Shown: one piece after another, positions 3,369 through 34,028 of the stretch
Layout: every line of letters starts with the position of its first letter
Position numbering within the stretch: position 1 is the stretch's first letter
IMG/VR virus record: IMGVR_UViG_2563366943_000021
Origin: a virus
Taxonomy: Duplodnaviria > Heunggongvirae > Uroviricota > Caudoviricetes
Length of the DNA stretch: 39,359 bases
Strand: one strand, 5' to 3'
Notes under the pieces: generated by a model
Told to the model about the DNA's origin: nothing
The model's database searches: none
Seen by the model: the letters and a program-made list of their open reading frames with translations, nothing else
Translations under genes and position numbers: made by a program

Positions 3369-3396
3369 ACCCGCAATATTTTGCGGGCTTTTTTTT
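3369..3396 (+). terminator. Plus-strand rho-independent terminator overlapping the tailspike stop codon
   Basis: Stem CCCGCAA / TTGCGGG, loop TATT, followed by 8 T on the plus strand; on the minus strand the hairpin is followed by A-rich sequence. Confidence 0.4.
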
Positions 3397-6300
3397 AACG
3401 TTCTTCCAGAGACTGAACCCGCTCTTTTATCTTATCCATTTCTCTGCGCTGCCATGCTGCCTCGATATAGAATAAGAGATCAGGTCTGACCCCCCATCTA
3501 GATCCTGCTGGCGTTATTTCAACGCGCTCAATGATGTCTTCTATTACCATCACTGGATTATCATCCTCATCAACAATGATGCTCCCGTCATTATCAGTCA
3601 GCGGCATTTCCCTTTGGCCAGTAATGACGTCATCATATACTGCGGGATAATCGTCATAGCAAAGAAAGGCATAGCGGCATGTTGTGCTTTCTTCTTCCAT
3701 GAGTCCGTGAGAAATAAGAACATCACGAAGTTGCTGCGCGATTACACCATGATGTATCCTCGCCCCTTCTTCCCCCTTTATAGCGACAGCGTTCAGCCAT
3801 TTATAAGCGATATACCTGACGTCACCCCAGGCATCCAGCAATGCTTCGTCAGGAGAGACCGGCTCTGTCTTTAATGTTCCGTCACTGGTAACCACAGGAT
3901 TGGAGCCAAGATAAACTGTCGAGAACCTGTTTCCCGGACCACCAAGAGCATTTACATTATCAAGATAAGGTTTAACATCTCCGTTCTCAAAAAGATGTTC
4001 GAGTGCGTTATATACCGCGCGACGTGGAGTACTGCTTCCGGAACCATGCAACGTTATCATTGCACCATCTGCTGAAGACGTTGTTTCACCGCCGCTAACG
4101 ATTAATCTCTGAGCGGTAACATCATCAGACGGTACTTTCTTCGCAATAATGGCGTAATTACCCTCAAGTTTGACTTCCGCGCGAACTTGTCCTGATGTAC
4201 CTGCATGGACAGTCAGTGACTGGACGGCAACATCATCTGTGAAATCAACGGGTACAGGAACCGTCCTCACGCCTGACGTCGACATAAAAGTAGGAAGCGT
4301 TCTGTTAGGAGTGGCTCCGTAGACAAAATCCCTTGAAACAAATTCTTCCTGTTTAATTTTCACCCTGAAACAATACAAATCAGCCGGGTGACCATCGTGA
4401 ACATAAGGATATTTTCTGTTGTTATCCCCTATGCTCCATGGGTTTAGAAAGTCTTCCCCACCGAAAATGTAGTACAGCCAGTTGTCTTTGATACAAACTG
4501 AACCAACACCAACCGCAGAGTTAACTATTCCGCCCTGATAAATCTGATCAGTAACATTAACCCACTCTACATTATCCAGACTCCACTCATTGACGTTAAC
4601 TCTGGTCATAAATGTTCTTGGATAATTTCCTGCATAACGGTTATCAGGTTCTCCTCCTTCCCACTCACCAAATGCGCGCTCACTGCCAAAAATAATCAGC
4701 TCATCGCCAACTTTGGCAAAAGGAAGGTTTGAGTGATGAACATTATTTGGGAAGCGAAGAGAATTCCATGATGTACCTAAATCAGAGCTTCTGTGCAATG
4801 AACTACCGGGTTGAGTACTTAATGTCCCCCTGGTCGTCAGATACAGAATGCCATCATAATATTTTACACATGGCTCAGATGCATTCGCCTCATATTCTAC
4901 AGGTATGCGTCTGCGAACAAAGCTACCAGGAGAACCGAAAGCATCAGAGAAATAGAGTATCCCAAGCTCGCGTGGACCAATATCACCATTATGGTAGCCA
5001 ACAGCAAAACTGTTATCGCTAATCGTCGCAAAACTGTGAATCTCAGTAACAGGAGTGCTTCCGTCAACAAAAGAAGGAATAGTTCCAAGACTGGTTTTTC
5101 TCCATGGTGACGAGTGAAATGATGTGCCAAAACTCCAGTATCTACCCTCGTTATTCTGATCCACATCCTGGGTATTTTGCGTCGTAACTGTAAAGGTATT
5201 TTTATCAATAACAGTAGTCACCGTCATATTCCCGGTAACACCTGTAACACCAGAGTTTGAGAAGTTGACAAAATCACCAGCAAATAATCCGTGATCAGTA
5301 ATGCGAATATAAGCGACTTGCTGATTTGCTGCTTTCGTTATACCACCATAAACGCGAAGGCTGCGACTCATTGGGCGATCCCACAACTCTGCAACCTGCA
5401 GTTTATTTCCTCTCACGGTCCGCGTCTCAATTACAGCAAAAAGGCGATTTCTGACAACCCCCATACTCATGCAGTGATAGTTAACTGTGGGATAGTTTTC
5501 ATGTAAATCTGTAAGCCATTCCGGCGTTGTCCAGGTCTTCCCGTCATCTCCTGAGCGAACCCATGCAACATGGAGGTTATTTACACCATGGCGGTCTCCA
5601 GCCATAAAAGGCGCATAGATGACATTGTCATATACAAACGTTTTATCCTGCGTCCAGGCGTTGTACCACGGTGTATCTGTAATTTTAAATAACTCTCCCT
5701 GGATAAAATCTTCAGAAGCATAAAAAAGAGGCTGGCCCGGTATTCTCTCAAATAAAAAACGAGCATTTTTAAATCGACTGACATCCGGAAGAGTTGATAC
5801 TTTAAAAGTAAGCCCTAATCCGTCAATTTTATAACCTGGAGATGAGGCTTCAAGGCACGCGCTTATTGCAGTGGAATCGTCATTTATACCATCACCAACA
5901 GCTCCAAAATCTTTGGGGCTAATAGCATCACGCATTTTATCCTGGAACGTTCGGTACACAGCCCCAGAACCATACTGAATAAACCAACCAAAACCACCAA
6001 CAACTCCGGCGATTGCAGCATCGACATAATTACGCATTGAGCGATTATTTACAGCGTCCTGCTCAAATGATGGATCTGCAAGGTTAGAAATTTTGTTTTG
6101 CTTTGCATCGTAATATTTTGCAAGCAAAGATGGTTTCATCAATGCACGTCTGAACCACCCAAAACATTGCTGGATCAGCATCGTCAGGTAGTCAAAGGCA
6201 TCTTCATGCACTTCGGGGAAAAATTTTCCCTGATTGCGAAGGTCTGTGTCCTGCACTACATCAAGCACACGATCTATCGTAATTCGCCATCCAGTAGCAA

Positions 6301-6514
6301 GCGGAGACGGAAGAACCACAGAACCGCCACTATAAGTGCCCGCCCCAGTTACCGTATAACCGGTATCCAGGACCAATTCTGTTACGTTCCCGTTCAGGTC
6401 AGACACCTGAACAACCAGGTCTGATTTTCTGAAAATTCGAAAAGTATACGGAAACGATGTCGTAACGCCGTTACCGGTGTATTCGTTGTGGTCAACTTCG
6501 GTTGAGACCGTCAT
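3395..6514 (-). CDS. Tailspike: N-terminal particle-binding domain, Asp-box sialidase-like beta-propeller, C-terminal intramolecular chaperone domain
   Basis: 1039 aa; two Asp-boxes SGDDGKTW (5531-5554) and SSDLGTSW (4766-4789); C-terminal about 150 aa resembles the auto-cleaving chaperone domain of endosialidases; N-terminus resembles epsilon15-type tailspike anchors (recalled). Confidence 0.8.
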   Translation of the reverse strand: MTVSTEVDHNEYTGNGVTTSFPYTFRIFRKSDLVVQVSDLNGNVTELVLDTGYTVTGAGTYSGGSVVLPSPLATGWRITIDRVLDVVQDTDLRNQGKFFPEVHEDAFDYLTMLIQQCFGWFRRALMKPSLLAKYYDAKQNKISNLADPSFEQDAVNNRSMRNYVDAAIAGVVGGFGWFIQYGSGAVYRTFQDKMRDAISPKDFGAVGDGINDDSTAISACLEASSPGYKIDGLGLTFKVSTLPDVSRFKNARFLFERIPGQPLFYASEDFIQGELFKITDTPWYNAWTQDKTFVYDNVIYAPFMAGDRHGVNNLHVAWVRSGDDGKTWTTPEWLTDLHENYPTVNYHCMSMGVVRNRLFAVIETRTVRGNKLQVAELWDRPMSRSLRVYGGITKAANQQVAYIRITDHGLFAGDFVNFSNSGVTGVTGNMTVTTVIDKNTFTVTTQNTQDVDQNNEGRYWSFGTSFHSSPWRKTSLGTIPSFVDGSTPVTEIHSFATISDNSFAVGYHNGDIGPRELGILYFSDAFGSPGSFVRRRIPVEYEANASEPCVKYYDGILYLTTRGTLSTQPGSSLHRSSDLGTSWNSLRFPNNVHHSNLPFAKVGDELIIFGSERAFGEWEGGEPDNRYAGNYPRTFMTRVNVNEWSLDNVEWVNVTDQIYQGGIVNSAVGVGSVCIKDNWLYYIFGGEDFLNPWSIGDNNRKYPYVHDGHPADLYCFRVKIKQEEFVSRDFVYGATPNRTLPTFMSTSGVRTVPVPVDFTDDVAVQSLTVHAGTSGQVRAEVKLEGNYAIIAKKVPSDDVTAQRLIVSGGETTSSADGAMITLHGSGSSTPRRAVYNALEHLFENGDVKPYLDNVNALGGPGNRFSTVYLGSNPVVTSDGTLKTEPVSPDEALLDAWGDVRYIAYKWLNAVAIKGEEGARIHHGVIAQQLRDVLISHGLMEEESTTCRYAFLCYDDYPAVYDDVITGQREMPLTDNDGSIIVDEDDNPVMVIEDIIERVEITPAGSRWGVRPDLLFYIEAAWQRREMDKIKERVQSLEER

Positions 6515-6618
6515 GTTAAATCTCCAGATAGTCGCAGCACCCGTTGCGCCGCATATCTGGTTATTCTATTACCTGAAAAACCATATATGGATAAAAAGAC
6601 TATAAATACCAATAGATA

Positions 6619-6633
6619 TTACCTTTCGGGTAA
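6619..6633. promoter_or_regulatory. Operator site TTACC-TTTCG-GGTAA
   Basis: Perfect 5+5 inverted repeat with 5-bp spacer; intergenic, upstream of LexA box and small antirepressor-domain gene. Confidence 0.6.
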
Positions 6634-6670
6634 TTTGCAAAACGTGCTGGATAGCAAACAAATTATTTGT

Positions 6671-6690
6671 TACTGTATAAACATACAGTT
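6671..6690 (+). promoter_or_regulatory. LexA (SOS) box
   Basis: TACTGTATAAACATACAGTT matches CTGT-N8-ACAG with AT-rich spacer; 20 bp upstream of ORF start at 6710. Confidence 0.65.
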
Positions 6691-6709
6691 ATTGCATGGA
6701 GAAGATAAG

Positions 6710-6967
6710 ATGCAGCAGTATCACTATCCACTGGAAGACGGATTTACCGAAAGGATTCACACGCCGGGAGGCGTCAGGTCACTGGTGGAGGGATCGCACT
6801 TGATGAAATTACTCCGGGATCTCGATAAGGATGGATTTAATGTCGATGGCCCACTTGCCGAACTGACTGCACTGATTAACTACGTCACCAGCTCACAGAT
6901 GTCTATGCAGGATCTGCAAACACATCTCGACTATTGTGCCGAACAATTACGAAAACAAACCAGATAA
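6710..6967 (+). CDS. Small protein paralogous to the C-terminal domain of the antirepressor; candidate SOS-induced antirepressor
   Basis: 85 aa from ATG at 6710 with RBS GGAGAAG; aligns with C-terminus of the 7283-7993 product (HTPGGV/HSPSGV ... AELT); upstream part of the tracked ORF overlaps the operator and LexA box. Confidence 0.55.
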   Translation: MQQYHYPLEDGFTERIHTPGGVRSLVEGSHLMKLLRDLDKDGFNVDGPLAELTALINYVTSSQMSMQDLQTHLDYCAEQLRKQTR

Positions 6968-6970
6968 GGT

Positions 6971-6999
6971 TTGCAATTACCAAATGGAGTGCTTATATT
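6971..6999 (+). promoter_or_regulatory. Sigma70-like promoter (-35 TTGCAA, 17 bp, -10 TATATT) abutting operator
   Basis: Hexamers read directly; the TTACC half-site starts at the last base of the -10. Confidence 0.5.
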
Positions 7000-7013
7000 T
7001 ACCTTTGCGGTAA
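6999..7013. promoter_or_regulatory. Operator site TTACC-TTTGC-GGTAA
   Basis: Perfect inverted repeat; overlaps predicted transcription start of the ant leader. Confidence 0.6.
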
Positions 7014-7103
7014 ATTTACATCGCACTCCTCTTGTGCCATAGTAATCGGGCACTGGCAAAATCCAGTGCCGGGATTGGCGTCCCGAGTTACTAAGTGGCG
7101 CAT

Positions 7104-7127
7104 ACCACGCCAGACGTGGTTTTTTTA
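7104..7127 (+). terminator. Rho-independent terminator or attenuator in the ant leader
   Basis: Stem ACCACG / CGTGGT, loop CCAGA, followed by 7 T; about 100 nt downstream of the promoter and 155 nt upstream of ant. Confidence 0.45.
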
Positions 7128-7282
7128 TGCGTTAAGCACAGCTATATCCGAATTATGGTGGGCTGGGCAGGGGTCCGAAAGGACGCCGGTACCACTTAGG
7201 CCGGTACGCCAACCTTGTCCAGTTCACCACCAGTAATTGGCGTTGCGGTGGTGATTAAAATCACTAAGTGGAGATAACCACC

Positions 7283-7993
7283 ATGGCTAATGCTCAAACT
7301 GCCATCTTCAAATTTGAATCTGTAAACCCTATCCGTTCCATCATTATCGATGGCCAACCATGGTTTGTAGCCCAAGACGTTTGTAGTGCGCTGCGTATCC
7401 AAAACGTCACCCAAGCACTTGAAAAACTGGATGATGATGAAAGGTCTATGTTCAACATAGGGCATGAACATCGTGCAATTTTTGACAGCCGAGTAAAAGA
7501 GATCAACATCATCTCCGAGTCAGGCCTCTACACACTGATCCTCCGCTGCCGCGACGCAGTGACACCAGGCACTATCCCCTACCGCTTTCGTAAATGGGTT
7601 ACAGGTGAGGTTCTTCCTCAGATCCGCCGCACCGGAAGCTACATTAAAAACTCGCTCCCGCAGGAAGAACGCATAAAGATGGTTGCCGACCAGGTAGCCA
7701 ACGCCACGGCGTCAGCAGTAATGCAGGCGATGAAGATAGAGAACAAAACCTACAGCGCCCCACTGAAGCCCGGCTACCGCAGCCTGATTCACTCGCCGTC
7801 TGGTGTTCTCGGCCTGACGGAGAACTCACTGCTGATGAATTTGCTGAACCAGTTGCAGGAAGACGGGCACGATGTATCGGGCGCGGCGGCGGAGCTGACC
7901 ACCATGTTCTGCTACATCGTTGGTGTGAGCAAATGCCTGCGTGATATCCAGACGCACGCGGAGTACATCAACGACAAGGCAGGATTCTTCTGA
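7283..7993 (+). CDS. Antirepressor (Bro-N / AntA-like N-terminal domain)
   Basis: N-terminal IFKFE...DGQPWFVAQDVCSAL matches Bro-N/AntA signature; start set at ATG 7283 with RBS GGAG (tracked start is GTG 7268). Confidence 0.7.
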   Translation: MANAQTAIFKFESVNPIRSIIIDGQPWFVAQDVCSALRIQNVTQALEKLDDDERSMFNIGHEHRAIFDSRVKEINIISESGLYTLILRCRDAVTPGTIPYRFRKWVTGEVLPQIRRTGSYIKNSLPQEERIKMVADQVANATASAVMQAMKIENKTYSAPLKPGYRSLIHSPSGVLGLTENSLLMNLLNQLQEDGHDVSGAAAELTTMFCYIVGVSKCLRDIQTHAEYINDKAGFF

Positions 7994-8038
7994 CAGAACG
8001 GCGGCACAGGGATGTGCCTTTAAATAATTCTGTACAGA

Positions 8039-8067
8039 TTGCAGACTGGGGGTGAATAGCGTACTAT
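8039..8067 (+). promoter_or_regulatory. Sigma70-like promoter (-35 TTGCAG, 17 bp, -10 TACTAT) abutting operator
   Basis: Same geometry as promoter at 6971-6999. Confidence 0.5.
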
Positions 8068-8081
8068 TACCTTAAAGGTAA
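8067..8081. promoter_or_regulatory. Operator site TTACC-TTAAA-GGTAA
   Basis: Perfect inverted repeat immediately upstream of RBS AGGAGG. Confidence 0.6.
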
Positions 8082-8093
8082 AGGAGGCGCGAT

Positions 8094-8261
8094 ATGACAG
8101 CGTTGAAAAATCGTACTCAGCACAATGAACAAGCCAAGCAATGCTGGGATGTCATTGGAAAAGTTATGCTTGGCCGCGCAAGCAAAGAGCGCGACAAGGA
8201 TATGGTTTACCAGACAGGAACATCTTTCAGCGACTTCAAGGCGGCATTTCGCTCCAAATAG
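8094..8261 (+). CDS. Hypothetical small protein (55 aa), first gene of a two-gene cassette
   Basis: Absent from ORF track (below 60 aa); strong RBS AGGAGG 6 nt before ATG; GC-normal; operator-controlled promoter upstream. Confidence 0.45.
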   Translation: MTALKNRTQHNEQAKQCWDVIGKVMLGRASKERDKDMVYQTGTSFSDFKAAFRSK

Positions 8262-8281
8262 AAGCACATCAGGAGTTTTCC

Positions 8282-8722
8282 TTGAAGTTTAACATTAGAA
8301 TATCTAATAGTTTTCTACATGGGGAAAGCAACACCCCTTTCGCTGTAGACGGACCTTTCCTTACTGATGATGAAATAAAAATCATACAAAGTTTTTTAGA
8401 GGATGTTGCCAATGGAAGGGCGCTTGTTGGAAAAAACAAGCCCTCGTGGGTTGATGATAACCATGATAAAATTCCCGGCTCAGACAATTATGAGCAAGAG
8501 AATTATTGGCATTATCATTGTGGGCCAACATGGTATCCAAACACATTTAAGAATTATACCATTAACTTAAATTTCAACCCTGGCGGAAGGCATTCTAATG
8601 AATGCATTCATTATGCAAAAAATGATAATGAAATTGTCATTGTTGGATTTTCAAGAGAACACATACCTTTCCTTTCATCAGATGGAAACAACAATCCGCT
8701 TTTTAATGATGAAGAAGAATAG
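8282..8722 (+). CDS. Hypothetical AT-rich protein (about 146 aa), second gene of cassette
   Basis: AT-rich relative to neighbours; putative TTG start with RBS AGGAG 6 nt upstream, in frame with tracked ORF 8141-8722; no family recognised. Confidence 0.45.
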   Translation: MKFNIRISNSFLHGESNTPFAVDGPFLTDDEIKIIQSFLEDVANGRALVGKNKPSWVDDNHDKIPGSDNYEQENYWHYHCGPTWYPNTFKNYTINLNFNPGGRHSNECIHYAKNDNEIVIVGFSREHIPFLSSDGNNNPLFNDEEE

Positions 8723-8743
8723 CCCGCGCTGCGGGCTTTTTTG
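8721..8743 (+). terminator. Rho-independent terminator after the cassette
   Basis: Stem AGCCCGC / GCGGGCT, loop GCT, then 6 T. Confidence 0.6.
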
Positions 8744-8814
8744 TGGACGAAACAAAAGTCAGTGCTACACTCATTGACGCCACATTGAGGTGGCTTATAG
8801 ATGGAAATTTCACA

Positions 8815-8976
8815 ATGAAAAAAGCATTTGCTGCACTGTTCGTTTTGTTGTCTCTGGTAGCTTCAACTCAGGCCTTTGCCGGTCGTTGTCAGCACGACAG
8901 CGACACTGCTGCTGACGGCTCCCGCTGCGGTGGGTGTTCTGCGGATTCCCGCCCGGGTGGCGGTGGCATTCGTTAA
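8815..8976 (+). CDS. Putative small secreted Cys-containing peptide (53 aa precursor)
   Basis: Internal ATG of tracked ORF gives MKKAFAALFVLLSLVASTQAFA signal peptide then 31 residues with 4 Cys and Gly-rich tail; weak RBS. Confidence 0.3.
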   Translation: MKKAFAALFVLLSLVASTQAFAGRCQHDSDTAADGSRCGGCSADSRPGGGGIR

Positions 8977-8999: not shown

Positions 9000-9011
9000 G
9001 TGACATGTCAC
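9000..9011. repeat. 12-bp perfect palindrome GTGACATGTCAC (copy 1 of 3)
   Basis: Identical 12-mer also at 26720-26731 and 28984-28995; all at gene ends. Confidence 0.7.
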
Positions 9012-9388
9012 GCAACGCAATTATTACCGCGCCATGTAACATTTTTAATAATCTTATCAGCACCAAACTCAACGTAAACAGAGCAACTGAAATGGAGTGT
9101 ATAACCGCCATCAGTTGTTGCGTATGTGTTTGAATATATAGTATTACCAATTAGATTAGACGTAGTATTATACGTTGTGGTTTGTGGTACGTTATAACTA
9201 CCAGAGCTTGAGTAAACATACACTCTGTTTCCATCTGGAGATGTAAGCTCTCCCTGAGGATACCCCCACTGCTGAACCATTGCGTCTATACTCTGCCCGC
9301 GCCACGTAAGCATATTTCTTTCAAACTGTGCAGCTGACTGGCATCCAACGAGAAGCATAAATCCAAAAATCAAAAATACTTTTCTCAT
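9008..9388 (-). CDS. Lipoprotein (126 aa), prophage moron
   Basis: Start moved to internal ATG (MRKVFLIFGFMLLVGC) giving signal peptide plus lipobox LVGC; low GC; own terminator. Confidence 0.55.
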   Translation of the reverse strand: MRKVFLIFGFMLLVGCQSAAQFERNMLTWRGQSIDAMVQQWGYPQGELTSPDGNRVYVYSSSGSYNVPQTTTYNTTSNLIGNTIYSNTYATTDGGYTLHFSCSVYVEFGADKIIKNVTWRGNNCVA

Positions 9389-9607
9389 AATTACCCCTAT
9401 CATGGAAAAACAGCACCAATCCACAAATTAACTAGTTATTTTATTATTCTTCCGAACAATACAATTCCGAATACTACAAAGCCGAACCATGCCGCTGCAC
9501 GCAACAGAGATTCCAATTGAAACCCATTTTTATCAAAATGTATGAATAGCATAAAAACGCTGCACATATTAGTACAATAAAAGTTATTTGAACCATCATA
9601 TCTCCTT

Positions 9608-21664: not shown

Positions 21665-21684
21665 GTGGGCCTGTTGCGGCCCAC
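21665..21684 (-). other. Stable hairpin immediately downstream of major capsid gene
   Basis: Stem GTGGGCC / GGCCCAC with 6-nt loop; no U-run. Confidence 0.35.
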
Positions 21685-25593: not shown

Positions 25594-25683
25594 ATCAATG
25601 ACTCCGTACGCAATTAAATTATTACCAATTTAACCACATATGATTTATTTATCGTAGGTAGTTGACATTTAACGCACAAATTA

Positions 25684-25698
25684 TTACCTTTCAGGTAA
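25684..25698. promoter_or_regulatory. Operator site TTACC-TTTCA-GGTAA, with TTGACA hexamer 17 bp upstream
   Basis: Perfect inverted repeat at the upstream edge of the plus-strand tRNA moron. Confidence 0.55.
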
Positions 25699-33058: not shown

Positions 33059-33289
33059 TCATGAGTAGAAGAAGTATGCCAGTTCTGCTTTTGAGCGCAG
33101 CCATTGTCTTGTTTTACAGGCTTTAAAAAGCCCATTCATCAATACCTTACCTGGCATTTTGCGCTTACCTGTTAAGTGAGTCTGGATATAGTGACTCGTC
33201 GTTCCGGCTTCCTGTGCGAAGGCTTCACGCTCATCCGGAGTAAGTGCAAGCCAGTGCTTTTTGAAATCGAAATGTCCGTTATCGCTCAT
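33059..33289 (-). CDS. Cro-like small HTH DNA-binding protein
   Basis: 76 aa; divergent from repressor gene across the triple-operator region; HTH-like segment AGTTSHYIQTHLTGKRKMP. Confidence 0.5.
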   Translation of the reverse strand: MSDNGHFDFKKHWLALTPDEREAFAQEAGTTSHYIQTHLTGKRKMPGKVLMNGLFKACKTRQWLRSKAELAYFFYS

Positions 33290-33321: not shown

Positions 33322-33350
33322 ATATTCACCCATAAGGTAACAAAAATCAA
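33322..33350 (-). promoter_or_regulatory. Putative cro-side promoter (-35 TTGATT, 17 bp, -10 GAATAT) overlapping operator O1
   Basis: Read on reverse complement. Confidence 0.4.
33326..33340. promoter_or_regulatory. Immunity operator O1 TCACC-CATAA-GGTAA (9 of 10)
   Basis: First of three sites in the divergent intergenic region. Confidence 0.55.
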
Positions 33351-33356
33351 GGATAG

Positions 33357-33371
33357 TTACCTATGAGGTGC
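33357..33371. promoter_or_regulatory. Immunity operator O2 TTACC-TATGA-GGTGC (8 of 10)
   Basis: Degenerate site, 31 bp from O1 and 17 bp from O3 centre to centre. Confidence 0.45.
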
Positions 33372-33373
33372 AT

Positions 33374-33388
33374 TTACCTGTTGGGTAA
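33374..33388. promoter_or_regulatory. Immunity operator O3 TTACC-TGTTG-GGTAA
   Basis: Perfect inverted repeat nearest the repressor gene. Confidence 0.6.
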
Positions 33389-33443: not shown

Positions 33444-34028
33444 ATGAAAAGTATCCAGGACGTCCGCAGGCAAAATCTCAACGACTTGATCGACCGTGAA
33501 TTCAATGGTGTTCAGACGCGGATGGCAGAAAAACTTGGAACTCAGGCAAATCTGGTAAACCGCTGGGCTCTTGGCAAGAAGGTTATCGGCGACCAGGTTG
33601 CACGAAAAATTGAAGCTGCCGCCAATAAACCCCGTAACTGGCTTGATATCGATCGCTCGCTTTCTCAGGAAGGTTTTCAGCCTGTCGGCCCAAGCGACAT
33701 TGGTCAGCTGGCGGCTCACAACCTGGAACGCTGGATGAGCGAAAGCCGCGACCTTTCAACGCAGGGAAAACTTCACCGCGCATCCGGCGTCGCCCAGGTG
33801 ACAATCAGTCGCCTGTTAAACAATGAGGTCAGCGTTTCCATTTCCACCCTGGAGAATGTTGCATCCGCATTCGGGCGTCACGGCTATGAATTACTGATTC
33901 ACCCGCACGACCCTGCGACCATCAACTATGACCGCTCGCGCTACGCATTGTTACCCGAAACCGAGAAAGCAAAGATCGAAAGTTACATTGAATTTGTCAT
34001 CAACCAGAACGAAAAAAACAAACAATAA
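33444..34028 (+). CDS. Prophage repressor candidate with two HTH domains and no S24 peptidase domain
   Basis: 194 aa; HTH-like segments (AEKLGTQANLVNRWALG and ASGVAQVTISRLLNNE); no Ser-Lys autocleavage motif; divergent from cro-like gene; own terminator. Confidence 0.6.
   Translation: MKSIQDVRRQNLNDLIDREFNGVQTRMAEKLGTQANLVNRWALGKKVIGDQVARKIEAAANKPRNWLDIDRSLSQEGFQPVGPSDIGQLAAHNLERWMSESRDLSTQGKLHRASGVAQVTISRLLNNEVSVSISTLENVASAFGRHGYELLIHPHDPATINYDRSRYALLPETEKAKIESYIEFVINQNEKNKQ

Follow-up and report, generated by a model that had tools for sequence, protein, structure and literature searches.

The closest described relative of the switch considered here belongs to the Salmonella phage SPC32H. 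Its repressor, Rep, is reportedly left uncleaved during the SOS response and is said to be inactivated by Ant, a small antirepressor under LexA repression. The same work, by Kim and Ryu in 2013, reportedly traced the constitutive Ant production of SPC32N, a constitutively lytic variant of SPC32H, to the exchange of one base in its LexA site. In one published account, LexA self-cleavage in SPC32H leads to antirepressor synthesis and so to inhibition of the repressor (PMC7380047), and another describes an Ant tetramer that binds two Rep dimers and breaks up the DNA-binding Rep tetramer (PMC9638917).

The window, by which we mean the whole stretch of 39,359 nucleotides analysed here, very probably comes from an epsilon15-like temperate phage (genus Uetakevirus) with a lytic switch of the SPC32H Rep/Ant type. 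Positions 6400-8100 match the epsilon15-like podoviruses HEMP4, vB_EcoP_ZX5, TL-2011b and phiV10 of this genus at 91-97% identity, and prophages matching the region occur in 538 of 5,426 complete E. coli genomes, 227 of which cover at least 80% of it. As the tailspike gene (3395-6514, minus strand) bears a full set of endosialidase domains, the host is probably K1 E. coli. The gene that we call ant is flanked by the tailspike gene, from which it diverges, and by the end of the late operon, as in SPC32H, and this order of a minus-strand tailspike gene and a plus-strand ant is common to the window, SPC32H, epsilon15 and phiV10.

SPC32H, a member of the same genus, thus shares with the window the tailspike/ant order, as well as the position of the LexA box and an Ant that is 88% identical (tblastn to the ant gene of KC911856). 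Its Rep is homologous to that of the window over the full length and has the same two-domain layout, in which an N-terminal domain binds DNA and a C-terminal one serves oligomerisation and Ant binding, and its operators follow an identical motif with a near-identical three-site layout between rep and cro. The two phages differ in that the Rep proteins are just 42% identical and in what follows ant, as SPC32H is devoid of the isrK/C4/Bro-N cassette and the window has there a further Ant domain as part of a fusion. The host differs as well, probably E. coli (K1 endosialidase tailspike) for the window and Salmonella for SPC32H.

Rep and the small antirepressor Ant

The rep gene (33444-34028, plus strand) encodes an SPC32H-type repressor of 194 aa. 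In Pfam it matches HTH_3 at residues 106-147 (E 1e-9), with a weak second HTH-like match at residues 21-61, and gives no match to an S24 peptidase at E<=0.1. The preliminary description had proposed a repressor with two HTH domains and no S24 autocleavage domain, and had named an HMM search for S24 as the check that could overturn it; the proposal is borne out on both points, the HTH match at residues 106-147 being the stronger. Nor was S24-like sequence detected anywhere in the window by tblastn with LexA, lambda CI and UmuD, the best match having an E value of 2.6. Against solved structures Rep aligns over its full length, residues 1-190, with chain A of PDB 5D50, which is SPC32H Rep (E 4e-42), and its C-terminal half, residues 89-190, matches 5D4Z (E 4e-20). 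The repressors of phiV10, ZX5 and phiv142-3 have exactly its sequence (100% identity), and overexpression of Rep in the ZX5 study blocked lysis and abolished free phage (PMC9782041). Divergent from rep is a cro-like gene (33059-33289, minus strand) that matches phrog_35, a transcriptional repressor family (E 6e-13).

The ant gene (6710-6967, plus strand) encodes a small antirepressor of 85 aa. By phmmer its product aligns over residues 2-84 with chain E of PDB 5D50, 'Anti-repressor protein' (E 4e-47), and this chain, SPC32H Ant, is the single solved structure that it matches. The SPC32H orthologue is annotated as ant, has 86 aa and occupies the corresponding place, divergent from the tailspike gene. 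As Rep is 42% identical to its SPC32H counterpart and Ant 88%, we take the binding of Ant to the window's Rep as an assumption, and the low identity of Rep means that the Rep-Ant interface may differ here from that of SPC32H.

The annotation of ant is poor. The protein matches no family in Pfam or NCBIfam, its match in PHROGs, phrog_450, is labelled 'unknown function', and among the records listed for the 538 matching E. coli genomes the gene is labelled only 'hypothetical protein'. Gene callers frequently extend the open reading frame to 126 aa, over its own LexA box. We rejected this longer frame, which begins at 6587, as the true gene, as it overlaps both the operator and the LexA box and lacks the GGAG that precedes the ATG at 6710; the SPC32H Ant that was crystallised and annotated, at 86 aa, also disfavours it.

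Paralogy between the 85-aa protein and the C-terminal domain of the Bro-N protein encoded at 7283-7993 had been noticed from the sequence, and BLASTP agrees, with 42% identity over 74 aa to residues 155-228 of that protein (E 9e-16). The domain is not restricted to this pair. An exhaustive profile search collected 62 clusters at 50% identity, most of them stand-alone proteins of ~85-95 aa, and in those of the larger members that were checked the domain is C-terminal and the N-terminal part is an AntA, Bro-N, Rha or ORF6N domain; a word-indexed search with Ant returned just the close stand-alone relatives of 85-86 aa, and the fused forms came up in the exhaustive search only. Since it is found alone or behind varied N-terminal domains, the Ant domain behaves, judged by this distribution, as a portable module, and one that presumably serves Rep binding.

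The LexA box and the operators

The sequence TACTGTATAAACATACAGTT at 6671-6690 has three mismatches to the LexA (SOS) box consensus. It is the sole site within three mismatches of TACTGTATATATATACAGTA in the 39 kb, and none of 100 shuffled controls contained any such site. Its end lies 19 nt from the ATG at 6710, itself preceded by GGAG 8 nt upstream, so the near-consensus box reported upstream of the 85-aa reading frame is present and unique in the window. The shorter pattern CTGT-N8-ACAG occurs three times in the window against 0.53 expected; the two further copies, at 21671 and 26213, were rejected as LexA boxes as they have GC-rich spacers and more than three mismatches from the 20-mer consensus.

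When the window, phiV10, SPC32H and SPC32N are aligned between tailspike gene and ant, all four have the box in identical columns. Over the aligned stretch SPC32N departs from SPC32H at one base only, a C to A change in the CAG half-site of the box, which matches the reported account of a box mutation that makes Ant constitutive. Both the box and the half-sites of the neighbouring operator keep their position in nine Uetakeviruses whose Ant proteins are 58-100% identical to that of the window; in the Klebsiella relatives the left half-site reads ATGT and not CTGT. By this comparison with relatives the LexA box is very probably functional. The opposing reading, that the palindrome arose by chance or that RecA-stimulated cleavage inactivates Rep, draws its support from the general lambda paradigm and nothing more. 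It would have to accommodate the shuffled controls, the position conserved in nine phages and the one-base difference between SPC32H and SPC32N that falls inside the box, as well as a Rep that has no S24 domain and whose SPC32H homologue is, by published account, a target of inactivation by Ant, and we consider it highly improbable.

The promoter of ant is less well defined. Two tentative candidates on the plus strand were read by hand, one with a -35 hexamer TGGATA at 6648-6653 and a -10 hexamer TACTGT at 6671-6676, the other with TAGCAA at 6652-6657 and TATAAA at 6676-6681. As a consensus promoter scan at a threshold of 9/12 found no sigma-70-like site 5' of ant, we infer these hexamers from reading 6648-6681 by eye. 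The -10 of either candidate falls within the LexA box, and the motif CTGGA-A at the candidate promoter is conserved in all nine relatives; the box would thus overlap the ant promoter.

Based on these comparisons we propose, with high confidence, a switch of the SPC32H type, in which LexA holds ant off, the SOS response releases it and Ant strips a non-cleavable Rep from its operators. In the lysogen Rep, which has no peptidase domain, would sit on operators of the form TTACC-N5-GGTAA, and host LexA would occupy the box overlapping the ant promoter. DNA damage would activate RecA and bring about the self-cleavage of LexA, the loss of LexA would permit ant transcription, and the 85-aa Ant would bind Rep and remove it from DNA, turning the lytic genes on. 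Direct support comes from the homology of both proteins to the Rep-Ant crystal complex, from the absence of S24 and from a box and operators that are present, in place and conserved. LexA binding, the binding of Ant to Rep and SOS-dependent induction are carried over from the work on SPC32H. The idea already put forward for this locus, in which a small LexA-repressed antirepressor inactivates a repressor that does not cleave itself, thus gains support from homology to SPC32H Rep and Ant (PDB 5D50) and from the conserved box.

The TTACC-N5-GGTAA motif occurs 13 times in the window with at most one mismatch, against 0.63 expected, and all 13 sites are intergenic when read by eye against the lists of open reading frames. 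Three operators lie in the rep/cro intergenic region, at 33326-33340, 33357-33371 and 33374-33388; the first and the third are among the 13, and the copy at 33357, which has two mismatches, was read by eye. Their centres are 31 and 17 bp apart, compared with 30 and 17 bp in SPC32H, where three copies of the motif lie between rep and cro, three lie 3' of rep and one lies upstream of ant. In the GenBank record of epsilon15 the site upstream of gp19, the ant orthologue, is annotated 'protein_bind: repressor', together with six others. By its position the motif is the immunity operator. An operator of the P22 Mnt/Arc type was considered for it, and the three-site rep/cro array of both the window and SPC32H argues against this.

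One of these operators, TTACCTTTCGGGTAA at 6619-6633, stands in the divergent intergenic region between tailspike gene and ant, and its half-sites are invariant in the nine Uetakeviruses. The SPC32H copies and the annotation of the epsilon15 record indicate that this operator is real and has been noted before. Which gene it serves is a separate matter. The operator forms the leading part of a composite element, ATTACC-N5-GGTAAT followed after a gap by CATATRTGGTT-N5-GGTAATA, and in the window as well as in epsilon15 this element stands with equal geometry upstream of both the tailspike gene and the gp3 homologue, with which the structural genes begin. In the window the operator-to-start distances of the two elements are 105 and 91 bp, and the element at 6619 faces the tailspike gene. 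This recurrence points to a control of late or tailspike transcription.

Action of the 6619 operator on ant and action on the tailspike and late genes are, in our estimate, about evenly balanced. According to the latter reading, to which we give slightly less than an even chance, the operator would serve tailspike and late control, Rep bound there would silence or block late transcription and ant would answer to LexA only. The recurring composite element agrees with this, and so do the IHF sites that adjoin both operators, the one between ant and tailspike gene and the one at gp3, in the epsilon15 record. The edge of the operator lies at least 14 bp upstream of the likeliest ant -35 and its centre ~57 bp upstream of the likely start, and complete repression of ant by Rep would be self-defeating for SOS induction. 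On the other side, TTGCAA at 6635-6640 directly adjoins the operator in the way that TTTACA at 7015-7020 adjoins the operator at 6999-7013, a geometry like that of the isrK promoter that would make a Rep-sensitive ant promoter possible. The dual control of ant by LexA and by the phage repressor, which had been suggested for the locus, stands as regards the LexA box and the existence of the operator; control of ant by Rep is a possibility only, given an operator that sits 5' of the probable core promoter and a composite element that faces the tailspike gene.

The isrK/C4 leader and the Bro-N antirepressor

Ahead of the Bro-N gene runs a leader at 7037-7271 with isrK and C4 antisense-RNA elements, which had been overlooked in the preliminary description. 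A second immunity operator, TTACCTTTGCGGTAA at 6999-7013, adjoins the -35 of the promoter of this isrK/C4/Bro-N cassette, a promoter-like site TTTACA-17-(TG)CATAGT at 7015-7043 (plus strand) whose predicted start near 7050 coincides with the start of the Rfam isrK match. All the leader features lie on the plus strand. The isrK-like sRNA, holding the C4 target set a1-b1, spans 7050-7126 (RF01394, 67.2 bits against a gathering score of 50), with an intrinsic terminator at 7104-7127; a match to c4-a1b1 (RF03163) at 7037-7089 scores 44.3 bits against a gathering score of 46.7. The C4-type antisense RNA follows at 7151-7234 (RF01695, 66 bits, gathering score 45). One of its loops, 7192-7199, is complementary to 7091-7098 in the isrK element and to 7264-7271, and another, 7202-7212, is complementary to 7075-7085 in the isrK element and to 7237-7248. 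The downstream members of these pairs form the target set a2 (7237-7248) and b2 (7264-7271), the latter overlapping the Shine-Dalgarno sequence of the Bro-N gene. The leader folds markedly better than shuffled controls, with a z score of -5.6. Reading frames in it are just short, one of 14 aa and one of 34 aa at 7095-7199, and in the ZX5 annotation the C4 region is covered by an 'ash family protein' of 37 aa.

The cassette is also found in phiV10, ZX5, Tyrion, Kp4865-1 and ST11-OXA245phi3.2, and among the genomes compared it is missing from SPC32H, epsilon15, BUCT554 and BUCT711, in which ant and the LexA box are kept. Across five aligned cassettes of four specificity types the b'/b1/b2 and a'/a1/a2 elements carry compensatory changes. 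The b' loop reads CCACUUAG and the b target CUAAGUGG in the window, CCUUUUAG and CUAAAAGG in phiV10 and ZX5, and CCUUUGUAG and CUACAAAGG in Tyrion, where the a elements covary too; in ST11-OXA245phi3.2 the loop CCGUUUAG is paired with targets CUAAACGG (b1) and CUAAGCGG (b2).

The Bro-N antirepressor gene (7283-7993, plus strand) encodes an N-terminal Bro-N domain (PF02498, E 1e-19) and a C-terminal domain like SPC32H Ant (residues ~153-234), the protein matching phrog_130, anti-repressor, and its C-terminal domain phrog_450. Within three mismatches of the consensus the window scan found no LexA box at this gene. As it is preceded by an operator for Rep, by the terminator of an isrK-like element and by a C4 RNA whose b2 target lies over the ribosome-binding site, the gene is most likely controlled in the manner of P1 immI and Gifsy-1 isrK-anrP and not directly by LexA. 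The fusion would then most likely be a second antirepressor, gated by Rep at the promoter and by C4 RNA at the ribosome-binding site, and it may act as a feedback amplifier or as an anti-immunity function.

It is conceivable that this fusion is itself the main inducer and that the small Ant is accessory, for instance a modulator that co-assembles with it through the common domain. The Bro-N protein is the only one of the two to have been tested in a close relative: overexpression of ZX5 ORF4 lowered lysogens about 1000-fold, from 10^9 to 10^6, and reduced repressor transcripts, in a study that mentions neither the small Ant nor LexA (PMC9782041). The C-terminal 160 residues of ORF4 recur without change in the window's Bro-N protein, at residues 77-236. 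The domain that Ant and the Bro-N protein have in common, 42% identical between them, could allow co-assembly, and SPC32H Ant is described as tetrameric in a published account (PMC9638917). Yet SPC32H, epsilon15, BUCT554 and BUCT711 retain ant with its LexA box and have no cassette at all, and the Bro-N gene, besides lacking a LexA box, would be translationally masked by C4. In SPC32H the small Ant reportedly suffices (PMC9638917). We therefore regard a leading role of the fusion as improbable and retain the small Ant as the inducer.

More tentatively, and as a possibility that we think less likely than not, the E. coli epsilon15-like phages may have a two-layer immunity of the P1/P7 kind built on the SPC32H switch, with a C4-gated second antirepressor that amplifies induction and confers heteroimmunity. 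The first layer would be the SOS-triggered small Ant. The second would be an antirepressor operated by Rep and gated by C4 RNA that carries the Rep-binding domain of Ant, with no terminator between the two layers. In the window phage there is indeed no terminator between ant and the cassette, and SOS-driven readthrough from ant would supply the a1/b1 decoy (isrK) RNA, the cassette promoter would become free once Rep is lost and the second antirepressor would serve as a positive-feedback amplifier. The cassette would also create heteroimmunity between prophages that are otherwise homoimmune: Rep is identical in the window and in phiV10 and ZX5, and their C4 specificities differ (CUAAGUGG as against CUAAAAGG).

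Relation to known immunity systems

A LexA-controlled Ant switch is already known, within the same genus and with crystal structures. The discovery value of the locus is accordingly small, the SPC32H mechanism having been settled genetically and structurally and the window phage having clear orthologues. Its practical use is in annotation, given an Ant that has no Pfam or NCBIfam model, is of 'unknown function' in PHROG and is often over-extended as a reading frame. What is perhaps under-appreciated is the tandem in which an Ant under LexA control is followed by a C4-gated fusion bearing the Ant domain, together with the variation of C4 specificity among phages with identical Rep; the C4-gated antirepressor that shares the Ant domain is a modest lead on immunity differences among prophages with identical repressors.

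Self-cleaving repressors of the lambda CI/LexA type have a C-terminal S24 peptidase, which Rep lacks. The same contrast separates the window from P22, whose C2 is cleavable in the SOS response and whose ant mutant is still inducible (PMC7380047), whereas Rep has no cleavage domain. P22 immI (ant, arc, mnt, sar) otherwise resembles the window, being from a podovirus in which an antirepressor gene is the neighbour of the tailspike gene and stands apart from the main immunity region; in P22, however, ant is under the Mnt and Arc proteins, and in the window the corresponding controls would be LexA and C4 RNA.

The locus had been likened to the Gifsy and 186 Tum paradigm, and the functional logic agrees, as GfoA, GfhA and GftA of Gifsy-1, -2 and -3, 186 Tum and N15 AntC likewise combine a repressor that does not cleave itself with a small antirepressor repressed by LexA (PMC3121763). 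Kinship in sequence does not follow: in Pfam, NCBIfam and PHROG the matches of Ant are the Ant family itself and antirepressor C-terminal domains, these searches showed no relation to Tum, GfoA or GftA, and its true family is that of SPC32H Ant. DinI is a further point of contrast. In Gifsy a dinI homologue precedes the antirepressor gene, and in 186 Tum one half is DinI-like (PMC3121763); the list of open reading frames shows no dinI-like gene next to the window's ant, nor is Ant such a fusion.

For the Bro-N leader the nearest counterparts are P1/P7 immI (c4 - icd - ant) and Gifsy-1 isrK-orf45-anrP, which share its isrK/C4 RNAs and the antirepressor gene 3' of them (PMC4825925). As in P1 immI and Gifsy-1, there are two target sets, a1/b1 and a2/b2, and b2 lies over the ribosome-binding site. 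In P1 immI, Ant is controlled by C1, C4 RNA and Icd, C1 acting at the ant promoter (PMC8201110), and the repressor operator at the promoter of the Bro-N cassette corresponds to this action of C1. No clear coupled upstream reading frame of the icd/orf45 kind was recognised in the window's leader. Unlike in P1 and Gifsy-1, the antirepressor has a C-terminal domain of the SPC32H Ant type, and the whole cassette is placed directly 3' of an ant gene under LexA control.

Antisense-RNA specificity and mosaicism at the Bro-N antirepressor

Between ant, which encodes the 85-aa small antirepressor, and the gene for the second, Bro-N antirepressor (7283-7993, + strand) resides an isrK and C4 antisense-RNA cassette of the P1-immI/Gifsy-1 type (7037-7271), whose downstream target b2 covers the Bro-N ribosome-binding site. 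Comparing five phages, we find that the C4 loops covary with their targets. The C4 specificity of the window is CUAAGUGG, as compared to CUAAAAGG in phiV10 and ZX5, and yet the repressor, Rep, is identical in all of them, suggesting from sequence comparison that these phages could display P1/P7-like heteroimmunity. The Bro-N antirepressor itself is a mosaic in which residues 77-236 match ZX5 ORF4 (L012, 1684-2379) exactly, whereas the first ~76 residues share only about 40% identity with it, indicating intragenic recombination at the Bro-N domain.

Gene callers often place the start of ant at the ATG at 6587, yielding a 126-aa product (6587-6967) whose reading frame takes in the operator as well as the LexA box. 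A single cluster of this over-extended type holds 833 member sequences.

Tailspike and accessory genes

The tailspike gene (3395-6514, - strand) encodes a complete K1 endosialidase on an epsilon15-type phage, comprising an N-terminal extension, beta-propeller, beta-barrel, stalk and S74 chaperone. Near-identical prophages are harboured by O1:K1, O7:K1 and avian pathogenic strains.

Within 8039-8722, a promoter-like TTGCAG-17-TACTAT overlaps the third operator (8067-8081) at its -10/+1 region, and a strong AAGGAGG adjoins this operator ahead of ORF 8094-8261 (phrog_8607). The latter overlaps with ORF 8141-8722 (phrog_5954); neither ORF has a known function, and the two probably constitute an accessory gene pair repressed by Rep. 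A bidirectional terminator lies at 8721-8737. The interval separating the antirepressor cassette from the late genes holds two small ORFs, 8743-8976 (+) and 9008-9424 (-; phrog_3716), each with a signal-peptide or lipoprotein-like N-terminus; both are putative moron-like cargo.

Operators around the genome

The TTACC-N5-GGTAA operator occurs 13 times, at 6619, 6999, 8067, 25684, 28874, 28892, 30988, 31050, 32989, 33326, 33374, 34086 and 34148, in every case intergenic as judged by reading the ORF lists by eye. The SPC32H genome carries 18 such sites, and seven are annotated as repressor sites in the epsilon15 record.

Common to the regions upstream of the tailspike (6563-6633) and the gp3 homologue (25620-25698) is a composite element, the operator followed by CATATRTGGTT-N5-GGTAATA, which epsilon15 carries in both places as well (L011, 19895-19990 and 2931-3020). 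This element may serve as a late-gene promoter under the control of Rep or as a Rep-controlled block. Scattered over the genome and often paired at a spacing of 18-62 bp, the operators are reminiscent of the 'stoperators' that some mycobacteriophages carry at many sites.
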